Virus genome (UHGV): UHGV-1461890
Direction: 5' to 3' (one strand)
Length of the DNA: 41,432 nt
Origin: a virus
The translations under genes were made by a program, and so were the position numbers. A model generated the notes under the pieces. The model worked only from the letters and a program-made list of their open reading frames with translations, searched no databases and was not told the DNA's origin. This document shows, in pieces, positions 15,917 through 27,265 of the stretch. How positions within the stretch are numbered: the first letter of the stretch is position 1; each line of letters starts with the position of its first letter.

Positions 15917-18900
15917 ATGGGAGCTAAAGATGTATATGAGCAGTTAAAACGAGAAAAACAACAAGGCAATTCTAAAGCCAAAAAAGTCTACGCTCAAATG
16001 ATGCAATCTAAAATAATAGATGAATTCAATTCTCTTATAAAGCATAATTCGGACTTTTACAATAAAACCAAGTCTCGTTTTTATGACGAAGATGACAACT
16101 TTATAGACATCTATCGTTCTGATTCAGAAGATTGGAAAAACACAGCGGTTTCCATGTCAAGTTCTGCTAGAGAAAAGTCTACAAATATAAGAAGTTTGCT
16201 GGATGAATATGGTTCGTATTATGATGCGGATACTGTATCGAGTATGTTAAAAACCCTTGATGAGCATGAAAAATTCTCTACTGACATTGTAAAACAAGCG
16301 GTAGAACAACATGACTATTTTTCCGAGTATAAAGACGAGAATGACTACAACCAAAAGGTTGTTATACCTAAAAATCAAAATGAAGAGTGGGCCTCAGCCA
16401 ATACTGAGGCTCTGAAAACTGAGATTGGCAACCTTGAAACATCTTATAAGGCATATTCAGAACTTAAATCAAAGAGAAATTTAAGAAGTTCTCAGCTTAT
16501 ATCCAACTATATAAAGTCAGGTTATACGAGAGATGAGGCAGTAAAATTAGCCGCTAAAGACAAGGATATTATCGAATACGATAAAAAGTTATCTGTTTAT
16601 GGAGATATGAGTAATGCTGAAAAATCTCTCTCCGAAAAGAAGCAGTTTTACAACAATGCCACTCGTGTTCAGGAAGGCTTATCTTTAAGCGGAATAACTG
16701 ACCCTTCATCCAAGCACTATGACCCAAATTATCTCAAGTATTCAGCAAAAGGTGAGGCTATGGGTGATGAGAAAAACGGTGGTTTTTTTACACCTGATAC
16801 TCAGCGCAAAAACCAAGTGGCTTACCTCCGTAACAATCCCGATATGTTGGAACTGTATGAAGAAACTGCCAACGATGCTAATGGCGCATCATGGGGAACT
16901 TCCGAAAGAATATTACTAGACCAAATTGAATATAAAGCCGCTAAGTATATGACAGATGAAGAGTTTTTAATTTACAATGCCTACTTAGGCAAGGGAGACA
17001 AAGAATCGGCTGATAAATATTTGGAGAGTATAGAGGAGACTTTAACCTCTCGTCAGGGTGCGGCGATTTCTGAACAGCAAGATACTTGGCTTAAAAAACA
17101 ATTATTTAGCGTTTATGCAGGACTCGACCAATGGGAACAAGGCATTATCAGTTTAGGTAACACCGAAGGAAAATATGACTCCCCTACAGGCGTACAGTTT
17201 GCCTCAGGCACAATAAGAGAAGACTTGGGTGCAATCGGTCAAGGTGCTTATGACTTAGGCGTTACTACAGGAAACATGCTCCCATCCATTTTGGTTTCAT
17301 ATCTCACAAGTGGTGTTGGTGGTGCAGTAGGTTTAGGCGCAAAGGCAGCAGGAACACTAGGCAAAGTAGCCGGTGCCGCAACCTTGGGAAGCTCGGCAGC
17401 AGGTAATGGTTATCAGGAAATGCTCAACCTTGGCTATGATAAGAGTCAGGCACAGGCTTATGGCACTCTTGTAGGCCTTTCCGAAGCAGGTCTTGAGTAT
17501 GTATTGGGTGGTATTTCATCCCTTGGTGGTACGGTTTCAGGTGGCATAACTGACAAGGTCGTTACTAAGTTAGTTTCTAACATGGATAAGGCTATCGCTA
17601 AGGTAGCCATTGGCGCAGGTGGTAAACTTGTAGGTAGTATGGTATCTGAATTTGGAGAAGAATACCTGCAAGAAGTATTAGACCCGGTATTTAAAAACAT
17701 AACGCTTAACACCGATGAGGATATAAGGTTATTCTCCTCCGAGGCTCTTTATGCAGGTATACTAGGTGCATTGTCAGCAGGTTTGCTTGAGGGTGGTTCG
17801 AGTATATCAGGTGAGGTTGCAACCTATAAAGCAGGTAAGGATGTTAAGAACACAGGTCAGTTAAGTAACCTTAAAAAGTTCGGCACATCATTTTCTGCTG
17901 ATACCGTTGCATATAAGATTGCAAGTCAGGTTGATGAGAACACCGATGCTTATACCATAGGTCAGCTGCTACATGAAGTGGGCGCAGATAGTTTATCTGA
18001 AGCAAATATAGCTGACATAGTAAAATCTCTTGAGAGGAAAAACATATCTCCCGAACACGCTCAAACCATTGCTGAGTGGTTAAACGCTTCTGTTCAAGGT
18101 GAGGTATTTAATCCTCTTCAGCGATTAGCTTTAAAAAATCCTGATATAGCACAAACCTTTAAGGATGTTATTATAAACCAGAACTCTACAGTAAATCAAA
18201 GGATGCAGAGTTATACCGACATCCTTCAAAATATCGCCAATGAAAAGGAAATTATAAAGGCTAACAAAAGCAAAGCAAAGGCTGAGAAGAAAGCTAATAA
18301 AACCAAAACAACCGAAGAAACAAAAACTACACCTTTTGTTCCTTTGTCTAATGAAGCAATTACTGCTTCTAAGATAGAATCACTAGCAAAAGAACTTGAA
18401 AGCGAAGGTGTATCACCTGAATTGGCTCAGGTTATGGCTCAGAGGAAGGTTTCTGAATCTTCAGAGGGTAAATCTGTTGCCGATACTGAAAATGCTATAG
18501 AGAACAAATTTGAAACCAATTTAGATGGACAAACACTCAACACAAAAACAGGTGATAGTGTTAATGTGTCTGAAATAGCCTCTATAAAAGATGGCAAAAT
18601 GACCTTAAAACTTGACAATGGTGAAACTGTAGATGCAGACGATATTAGTTTTGGTACTGAAGATGAGGGTTTAATCTATTCGACAGTATTAGACATGGGT
18701 GTTAATGCCGCTGTAGCAAACTCTCTTGTAAAAAATTACAGTCCATCGGACAAGCTCTCAGCAAGACAATATGCTCTTGGCATTAAAGAGGCATATAAGT
18801 ATGGCTCTTATGGTATGCCTATAAACGAAATATCTAAAAACGGTTTTGCCGCTGATTTAAGTGAGGCTCAGAGGACTCATGCCTATAACCTTGGCAAATC

Positions 18901-27265: not shown

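Follow-up and report, generated by a model that had tools for sequence, protein, structure and literature searches.

A predicted polyvalent protein of 3782 residues among the virion genes of a temperate phage lineage from gut Clostridia

Introduction

The virus genome UHGV-1461890, a stretch of 41,432 nucleotides that was analysed as a whole and is referred to here as the window, is dominated by one giant gene of 3782 codons at positions 15917..27265, which lies within the virion structural block of a temperate phage. Proteins that string several unrelated effector domains together in this manner were described as polyvalent proteins of phages and conjugative elements (Iyer, Burroughs, Anand, de Souza and Aravind, 2017; PMC5512222), and the evidence presented below supports the view that the giant protein is a previously undescribed member of this class. 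It consists of a conserved C-terminal core, which defines a very large family, and of exchangeable central modules, which are bordered by a short recurrent motif. Polyvalent proteins were defined computationally in 2017, and their processing and their targets are still largely a matter of prediction.

The Giant Gene and Its Modules

The borders of the modules were drawn from BLAST alignments of the giant protein with 224 relatives, and the frequency of most modules was counted among 138 giant relatives. With residue numbers in brackets (aa, amino acids), the gene is laid out as follows.

15904-15910, plus strand: ribosome-binding site AAGGAGG, 7 nt 5' of the ATG
15917..27265, plus strand: giant gene in the list of open reading frames (ORFs), ATG start, 3782 codons plus stop
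15917..17206, plus strand (aa 1-430): N-terminal region, charged and low in Gly, in 28 of 138 giant relatives
17207..17896, plus strand (aa 431-660): Gly/Ala/Ser-rich "glycine-zipper" region, in 57 of 138
17897..18526, plus strand (aa 661-870): spacer module, which mostly co-occurs with the Gly region and the zincin
18527..19717, plus strand (aa 871-1267): zincin-like metallopeptidase module, HExxH at aa 1108-1112 (nt 19238-19252)
19736..20398, plus strand (aa 1274-1494, core about aa 1355-1455): divergent MuF_C/PBECR-like module, in 11 of 138
20417..22399, plus strand (aa 1501-2161): rare enzyme-like module with a beta/alpha-barrel-like core (Cys3 module), in 44 of 138
22478..22978, plus strand (aa 2188-2354): ART-PolyVal ADP-ribosyltransferase domain (Pfam PF18760, E 1.8e-21), in 45 of 138
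23012..23449, plus strand (aa 2366-2511): charged, Pro/Gly-poor, coiled-coil-like linker
23468..24256, plus strand (aa 2518-2780): module of 264 aa, in 77 of 138, mostly directly before the C-terminal module
24257..27016, plus strand (aa 2781-3700, about 920 aa): all-alpha C-terminal module, the part that stays constant across the family
27017..27265, plus strand (aa 3701-3782 and stop): variable C-terminal tail, in 21 of 138

The first-pass annotation, which was made from the letters of the window, had described a single stop-free ORF covering about 27% of the genome, and this is borne out by a translation of 15917..27265 with zero in-frame stops before the end, by its share of the window (11349/41432, 27.4%) and by the strong ribosome-binding site. 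GC content and GC skew are even along the gene, save for a rise in GC over the glycine-rich part. An identical 3782-aa protein is encoded in records from two sources, namely JGI/IMG (41432 bp) and an ENA assembly (31060 bp), and two sister phages with the same gene order harbor versions of 3860 and 3768 aa. Among GTDB species genomes a relative was found at 79 loci, including cultured isolates (Waltera intestinalis WCA3-601-WT-6H, Butyrivibrio proteoclasticus P6B7, Clostridium sp. AM22-11AC, Gallibacter intestinalis DSM 108706 and an Oscillospiraceae strain); in about 50 of these 79 loci the frame with the conserved C-terminal module runs for 2400 to more than 4500 codons without a stop, the shorter frames being mostly truncated by contig ends. 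The identical protein in two sources, the versions of the sister phages and the intact frames of the relatives thus rule out that several genes were fused by assembly error, the refutation that the annotation had itself proposed, and the giant ORF is one genuine gene. Separate production of the modules from internal translation starts was also considered and rejected; the sole in-frame combination of a Shine-Dalgarno sequence and a start codon is at aa 2030, off any border, and no ribosome-binding sites with in-frame starts were found at the module borders. Terminal repeats of the contig were looked for and none were found.

Domains of the N-Terminal Half and the ADP-Ribosyltransferase

The annotation had listed a hydrophobic Gly-zipper segment, a zincin peptidase, a PBECR/MuF-C-like segment, a large unassigned module, an ART-like domain, coiled coils and roughly 1400 further residues, and had called for segment-wise searches with hidden Markov models as a check. 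In Pfam searches of the whole protein and of eight overlapping 600-aa pieces, the only match is to ART-PolyVal, which scores 77.8 bits (cut-off 31.2) and extends over profile positions 1-139 of 140, so that the ART-like domain can be regarded as bona fide; for the MPTase-PolyVal, PBECR and LPD families the segment-wise searches gave no match. The active-site configuration of ART-PolyVal comprises H in strand 1, Y in strand 2 and D in strand 5. H2198 and Y2223 are the commonest residues in their own columns (39/51 and 33/51 segments, respectively), and D2341 is present in the giant protein, in a column that varies among the segments. NCBIfam searches returned no match, and sequence searches of the PDB with the whole protein, with three module profiles and with three neighboring proteins returned nothing meaningful.

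The Gly-zipper segment is evident from a pronounced enrichment of small-residue motifs, as aa 431-660 hold 7 GxxxG and 20 small-xxx-small-xxx-small motifs, compared with 0.8 and 2.3 per equal length elsewhere in the protein. Gly accounts for 22% of aa 401-500, and four moderately hydrophobic stretches of about 19 aa start at aa 455, 518, 559 and 606. In the zincin-like module, each of H1108, E1109, H1112 and E1166 is conserved in 90% or more of 132 homologous segments (in A2, H108/E109/H112/E166 are close to invariant), and E1166 is the candidate for the third zinc ligand. The proposed HExxH peptidase is therefore upheld as far as the conserved HExxH...E signature goes, but its family label comes by way of homologues: MPTase-PolyVal (PF18818) gives no match at E<=5 in the giant protein, whole or in 600-aa segments, while it reaches E<0.01 in 3 of 43 homologues, and the best homologue (P0016, 45% identical) gives E 1.1e-4 and 22.7 bits against a cut-off of 27.5.

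Similarly, the PBECR/MuF-C-like segment proves to be a conserved module, yet one with sub-threshold similarity only in the giant protein itself, where MuF_C (PF18819) has no Pfam match. At the aligned stretch, PF18819 is matched by the homologues P0037 (E 5.2e-6, 27.0 bits against a cut-off of 27.6), P0038 (E 1.6e-4) and P0018 (E 0.065), and a comparison of the aa 1274-1494 module with bona fide MuF_C segments by hhalign gave E 2.3e-4 at a probability of 44% over 91 columns. The 3768-aa sister protein has a clear MuF_C domain (E 3e-15) at the equivalent place. As the segments of the giant protein miss the Pfam thresholds, both labels, zincin and MuF_C, are drawn through homologues and are to be read as putative.

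The anticipated coiled coils correspond to coiled-coil-like windows at aa 2358-2555 and 2754-2816, which are poor in Pro and Gly and rich in charge, and to a 67-residue helix at the start of the structural model of the C-terminal module.

A Rare Module with Three Invariant Cysteines

The large module that the annotation had left without a family is real and spans aa 1501-2161. A search of 5.8 billion sequences yielded only 14 homologues. Three cysteines of the module are invariant, namely C1605 in DFSTLC(1605)RKR and C1652 and C1655 in AC(1652)ALC(1655)YVESAR, and polar residues at strand ends (R1817, S1820, S1822, D1823, K1851, N1867 and H1932) are conserved, as is typical of an enzyme. The AlphaFold model is confident (pLDDT 86, pTM 0.83) and consists of a helical region followed by five beta/alpha units, for which Foldseek found nothing significant, only faint matches to TIM barrels. 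The cysteines are spaced C1605-x46-C1652-x2-C1655, unlike the CX3CX2C of radical SAM enzymes, and are separated from the beta/alpha core by about 160 helical residues. Because of this spacing and for want of a significant fold match, the module is termed a putative Cys3 enzyme with a barrel-like core, and radical-SAM chemistry is treated as a lead only, and a rather doubtful one.

A stand-alone protein of 961 aa with a Cys3 module (38% identity) is encoded at positions 10001-12886 of an unrelated, phage-like contig of 55 kb (L001), together with a Band_7 protein, a dUTPase, an RNA ligase and many small ORFs; there is no C-terminal family module nearby. On a Logan contig (L002, positions 1-8730), counterparts of the giant protein's modules are distributed over separate ORFs of >1123, 800, 250 and 584 aa on the same strand, the Cys3 module being in the 800-aa ORF and pieces of the C-terminal module in the 250- and 584-aa ORFs. 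This split could reflect fragmentation of the gene, stop-codon recoding or errors of assembly. The Logan contig was rejected as a second stand-alone copy, since the pieces of the C-terminal module in the next ORFs make a fragmented giant gene probable, hence the 961-aa protein is the only one counted.

A C-Terminal Module Shared by a Very Large Protein Family

The roughly 1400 residues behind the ART domain resolve into the 264-aa module and the conserved module of about 920 aa. The latter, which goes beyond the first-pass annotation, is by sequence the conserved core of a very large family. An exhaustive HMMER search with aa 2583-3782 against 1.84 billion cluster representatives retrieved 3982 proteins at E<=1e-3, of which 2799 reach E<=1e-30, and nearly all of the best 150 of these 3982 matches are 2000-4800 aa long with the match at the C-terminus. 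The C-terminal module is present in all 138 giant relatives, and a zincin of the type in the window in 97 of them. An AlphaFold model built from 22 sequences (pLDDT 76, pTM 0.74) consists almost wholly of alpha-helices, of which there are about 43; two hydrophobic ones begin at aa 3533 and 3584, and the 19-aa stretch from 3533 is the strongest in the whole protein. Among the PHROGs, aa 2520-3594 match phrog_22978, of unknown function, with E 1e-184. Neither fold searches nor searches of the PDB revealed a structural or sequence relative of known function, and no LPD or other family of Pfam was matched.

Module Exchange and a Recurrent Border Motif

Relatives of the giant protein and fragments of them carry the modules in differing combinations, among which direct joins of the zincin to the 2502-2861 region, of a MuF_C-like domain to ART and of the zincin to the Cys3 module were found. 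Sister-phage protein P0057 is 74% identical over aa 2312-3782 and 26% identical over aa 45-1273, while about 1000 aa in the middle are unrelated. Break points of the alignments cluster at aa ~1270, ~1500, ~2160, ~2360 and ~2510, and at each of these positions a similar hexapeptide occurs, the left break of P0057 falling at one of them.

19718..19735, plus strand (aa 1268-1273): junction motif 1, KLQARE; 96 BLAST alignment ends in aa 1251-1300
20399..20416, plus strand (aa 1495-1500): junction motif 2, KLSGRE; alignment break point
22400..22417, plus strand (aa 2162-2167): junction motif 3, KLSDRD; 44 alignment starts in aa 2151-2200
22994..23011, plus strand (aa 2360-2365): junction motif 4, IRYSER(D); 39 alignment ends in aa 2351-2400
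23450..23467, plus strand (aa 2512-2517): junction motif 5, KFQDRD; 80 alignment starts in aa 2451-2550

This border motif of the middle modules is likewise new compared with the annotation. In its strict form, [KRVI][LYF][SQ]xR[DE], it occurs exactly five times in the giant protein (aa 1268, 1495, 2162, 2360 and 2512), that is, once at every internal border of the middle modules. The core pattern [LYF][SQ]xR[DE] occurs six times against 0.43 expected, a number reached in 0 of 1000 shuffles; the sixth copy (aa 3106-3110) is a conserved site within the C-terminal module. In the variable parts of the 138 giants, 177 copies of the core pattern were observed against 34.6 expected. Its density is 0.65 per 1000 aa in proteins with a zincin of the window type versus 0.33 in those without it (Mann-Whitney p 0.002, uncorrected for relatedness). 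Relatives have the motif, typically as YSDRD, at 10-44% of the corresponding borders (background 4.4%), for instance 32 of 76 relatives at junction 3 and 38 of 86 at junction 5.

Genome Context and Hosts

On the 5' side, the giant gene is preceded by genes for the small and large terminase subunits (TerS and TerL), a P22-type portal, a Prp-type protease, a scaffold, the major capsid protein (MCP), a 573-aa protein that matches a PHROG named "internal virion protein", a "tail protein" and a 393-aa protein. On the 3' side it is followed by a BppU_N/collagen fibre, an endolysin, a serine integrase on the opposite strand, two repressor-like regulators and RecE/RecT.

7498-7842, plus strand: Prp-type cysteine protease (PF04327)
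7829-8863, plus strand: scaffold, carrying the L27-type Prp motif MHLNLQLFG/EGT
8927-9949, plus strand: MCP, starting with the L27-type Prp motif MKNIFKINLQLFA/EMN
14720..15901, plus strand: conserved 393-aa neighbor, in 35 related loci the gene immediately before the giant one
27317..29203, plus strand: BppU_N/collagen-type tail fibre or baseplate protein, in 34 related loci the gene immediately after the giant one
32111-33607 (minus), 34441-34866 (minus), 35204-35626 (minus) and 36561-38353 (plus): lysogeny and recombination module with a large serine integrase, two HTH repressor-like genes, and a RecE-like exonuclease with RecT

The 393-aa gene ends 15 nt before the giant start codon, the fibre gene starts 51 nt past the giant stop, and the order MCP, 138-aa gene, 573-aa gene, further genes, 393-aa gene, giant gene, fibre is kept in dozens of prophages. 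Family searches detected no tail tube, sheath, tail chaperone, tape-measure family or Dit/Tal among the neighbors, two of which match families named after siphoviruses (DUF859 "Siphovirus protein" and BppU_N). That the phage is temperate, as had been proposed, is supported by the integrase, the repressors and RecE/RecT; the two repressor-like genes face the early genes, and the sister phages L085 and L086 share this layout.

Two related loci (L004, positions 1-5759; L037, positions about 2-13180) have the giant gene directly before scaffold and capsid genes instead of the fibre, in the slot that usually belongs to a MuF-type minor head protein. Among the tail genes of L004 there is moreover one (positions 10809-14102) for a protein of 1097 aa with a domain of the tyrosine phosphatase-like Y_phosphatase3 family; this protein may be another virion-borne enzyme.

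The L27-type cleavage motif of Prp, named after ribosomal protein L27, is known from Firmicute phages such as 80alpha. LNLQLF[AG] sites are present in the MCP and the scaffold, and the giant protein has zero of them, so that Prp was rejected as the protease of the giant protein; as it lacks a Prp-type site, unlike MCP and scaffold, the zincin in cis is the natural candidate for its proposed processing. The portal has the sequence ELALQFFGAG at aa 544-550. The scaffold ORF starts with a TTG at 7829, while the ENA call for the identical sequence comprises 321 aa and begins 23 residues later, at the Met of MIHFIKPMHLNLQLFG, hence the true start is probably near nt 7898.

The hosts in the records are nearly all Clostridia (Lachnospiraceae, Oscillospiraceae, Ruminococcaceae and Eubacteriales) from the guts of humans, ruminants and birds. 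Intact giant genes also occur in two metagenome-assembled genomes labeled Bacteroidaceae and Candidatus Treponema caballi (L019 and L045), all others being Clostridia, and these two labels reflect either a binning artefact or a wider host range. The lineage is practically missing from 50,697 deposited phage records, in which megablast with the giant gene found no match, and tblastn with the C-terminal third and with the zincin/MuF_C region found one unannotated faecal fragment each. A pattern scan of IMG/VR with the single protein returned no relatives.

Function of the Giant Protein

With at least two unrelated effector or enzyme domains, a place next to packaging and virion genes and mosaic architectures among its relatives, which additionally carry PBECR5, PBECR3, MuF_C, LPD3 and a C5 DNA methylase, the giant protein has three of the features by which polyvalent proteins are recognized, and the polyvalent reading of the first-pass annotation is sustained by the bona fide ART-PolyVal domain, the conserved zincin signature, the shuffled modules and the position in the virion block of a temperate phage. 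We consider it fairly likely that the giant protein is an encapsidated ejection protein of the polyvalent type that carries effectors, in a lineage of podovirus-like temperate phages from Clostridia of the gut and the rumen. The constant C-terminal module, often together with the N-terminal Gly-zipper/zincin block, would serve for entry into the capsid and/or form a conduit through the envelope, a role suggested by its universality in the family, its position among virion genes and its hydrophobic helices. The exchangeable middle cassettes, which here are the MuF_C/PBECR-like putative RNA-binding or RNase domain, the putative Cys3 enzyme and ART-PolyVal, would enter the cell with the DNA and act before phage gene expression, modifying host proteins or nucleic acids such that host defence is blunted or the host is taken over. 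As a working hypothesis, [LYF]-[SQ]-x-R-[DE] may mark the sites at which the zincin cuts in cis, in the capsid or after ejection, to free the effectors.

Several points weigh against this reading. Presence in virions, ejection and cleavage are argued from position and precedent; the same is true of the role of the C-terminal module, which is deduced from position and universality, as no relative of known function was found. The zincin and MuF_C-like segments score below the Pfam thresholds, and the podovirus morphology is deduced from the P22-type portal and from tail-tube, sheath and tape-measure genes not being detected, while the matches to DUF859 and BppU_N point to families named after siphoviruses. 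The correlation between motif and zincin disregards the relatedness of the proteins, and the motif, present at only 10-44% of the equivalent borders, could instead be a structural cap or a linker convention.

The annotation had placed the gene where a tape measure or an ejection protein would be encoded, and while the location in the structural block directly before the fibre gene is confirmed, a tape-measure role is unlikely in view of the globular modules, the length variation, the missing long-tail genes and the arrangement in L004 and L037. A siphovirus tape-measure protein with acquired enzyme domains, lying inside a long tail tube and setting its length, would agree with the position directly before a BppU_N baseplate/fibre gene and with the DUF859 match of a neighbor, and the hydrophobic stretches of the Gly-zipper resemble those of tape-measure proteins. 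Yet the neighbors include no major tail, tail-chaperone, Dit/Tal or sheath families, the portal is P22-type, at least four compact globular or enzyme modules break up the chain, and lengths of ~2400 to >4500 aa between the same flanks would imply tails that differ about two-fold in length. With ~1.5 A per residue, a chain of 3782 aa would correspond to a tail of ~570 nm; moreover, the giant gene of L004 and L037 stands before scaffold and capsid genes, and related prophages of ~41 kb gave podovirus-like particles (PMC11318856), so that we regard this explanation as very improbable. Equally hard to credit is a protein that is not packaged at all, such as a late cytoplasmic or membrane protein encoded among the structural genes and acting in superinfection exclusion or as a toxin-like factor. 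ART and nuclease-like domains do occur in toxin systems as well (PMC5512222), but the gene is universal and fits closely between conserved structural genes of the same strand, no small immunity-like ORF was noticed beside it, the 920-aa module is invariant, which would be unexpected for an accessory moron, and the protein of phage phi24B discussed below sets a precedent for such a protein in virions.

A more serious competitor, although still an unlikely one, is a polyvalent polypeptide that stays in one uncleaved piece, with the motif as a folding or linker element, such as a domain cap or a convention passed on along with each cassette, and the zincin directed against the host, for instance against peptidoglycan peptides or defence proteins. 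N4 vRNAP, ArdC and TraC1 are transferred unprocessed despite an MPTase domain (PMC5512222), and a peptidoglycan-degrading peptidase domain was proposed for the phi24B protein (bioRxiv 10.64898/2026.04.10.717836). Most equivalent borders in relatives are without the motif, and the copy at aa 3106-3110 is inside the conserved C-terminal module, where cleavage seems unlikely. On the other hand, the motif is 5-fold enriched specifically in the variable parts, marks every internal border of the middle modules in the giant protein and is denser in proteins that bear the zincin, and passage of a 3782-aa chain through portal and tail channel would favor unfolded or fragmented cargo. The boldest form of the ejection reading, namely a true phage "polyprotein" in which the motif is a cleavage code for the in-cis zincin and the virions of phages that infect anaerobes deliver a radical-SAM-like iron-sulfur effector ready-made, appears improbable; if true, it would establish a new enzyme class among injected phage effectors and a general rule for how thousands of giant proteins in the prophages of gut Clostridia are processed.

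Independently of cleavage, the C-terminal family comprises ~4000 clusters at 50% identity, which are near-absent from deposited phage genomes and common in prophages of gut and rumen Clostridia, including those of cultured strains, and its 920-aa core is the likeliest determinant of packaging or ejection. The domain map provides exact borders, the border motif provides five predicted cleavage sites, and the exchangeable cassettes amount to a catalogue of candidate anti-defence enzymes in an under-studied phage group.

Comparison with Known Systems

Ejection proteins of short-tailed phages offer a positional parallel, as gp14-gp16 of T7 and the ejection proteins of P22 are likewise encoded between tail or adaptor genes and fibre genes and contain hydrophobic or amphipathic segments that may form a trans-envelope conduit, and gp16 of the T7 internal core also carries an enzyme domain. 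The giant protein differs in that it is a single chain, three times the size of gp16, with domains predicted to act in the cytoplasm, and no sequence or fold match to T7 gp14-16, P22 gp7/16/20 or other solved ejection proteins was found.

The polyvalent proteins of Iyer et al. (2017; PMC5512222) share with it the combination of unrelated domains in one chain, ART-PolyVal, zincin and MuF_C/PBECR hubs, the virion context and the shuffling of modules, and an autoprocessing mediated by the MPTase was proposed for them in general terms. In contrast to those proteins, which are anchored by MuF, portal or N4-type RNA polymerase, the anchor is here an all-alpha C-terminal module of ~920 aa. The Cys3 barrel is not among the polyvalent domains of Pfam, radical SAM is unmentioned in PMC5512222, and in the passages of that paper on cleavage, processing and linkers the border motif is not found.

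By description, the giant gene also resembles the 8-kb ORFs of prophages phi1 and phi4 of C. clostridioforme LM41, which are temperate prophages of Lachnospiraceae of ~41 kb with podovirus-like particles and one giant ORF of the polyvalent type, making up ~20% of the genome and similar to LPD3; these ORFs are situated at the 3' end of the prophage and were reported without a domain map (PMC11318856). The closest experimental precedent is gp47 of phi24B, a temperate podovirus, which has 2811 aa with LPD5, LPD1, LPD38 and MuF-C domains (bioRxiv 10.64898/2026.04.10.717836). Host phylum and domain set differ, and there is no detectable sequence similarity in the tblastn searches of the 50,697 phage records with the C-terminal third and the zincin/MuF_C region, but both are giant polyvalent proteins of temperate phages that are, or are predicted to be, short-tailed, and gp47 was found by proteomics to be abundant in virions and was proposed to be an encapsidated ejection protein (bioRxiv 10.64898/2026.04.10.717836).

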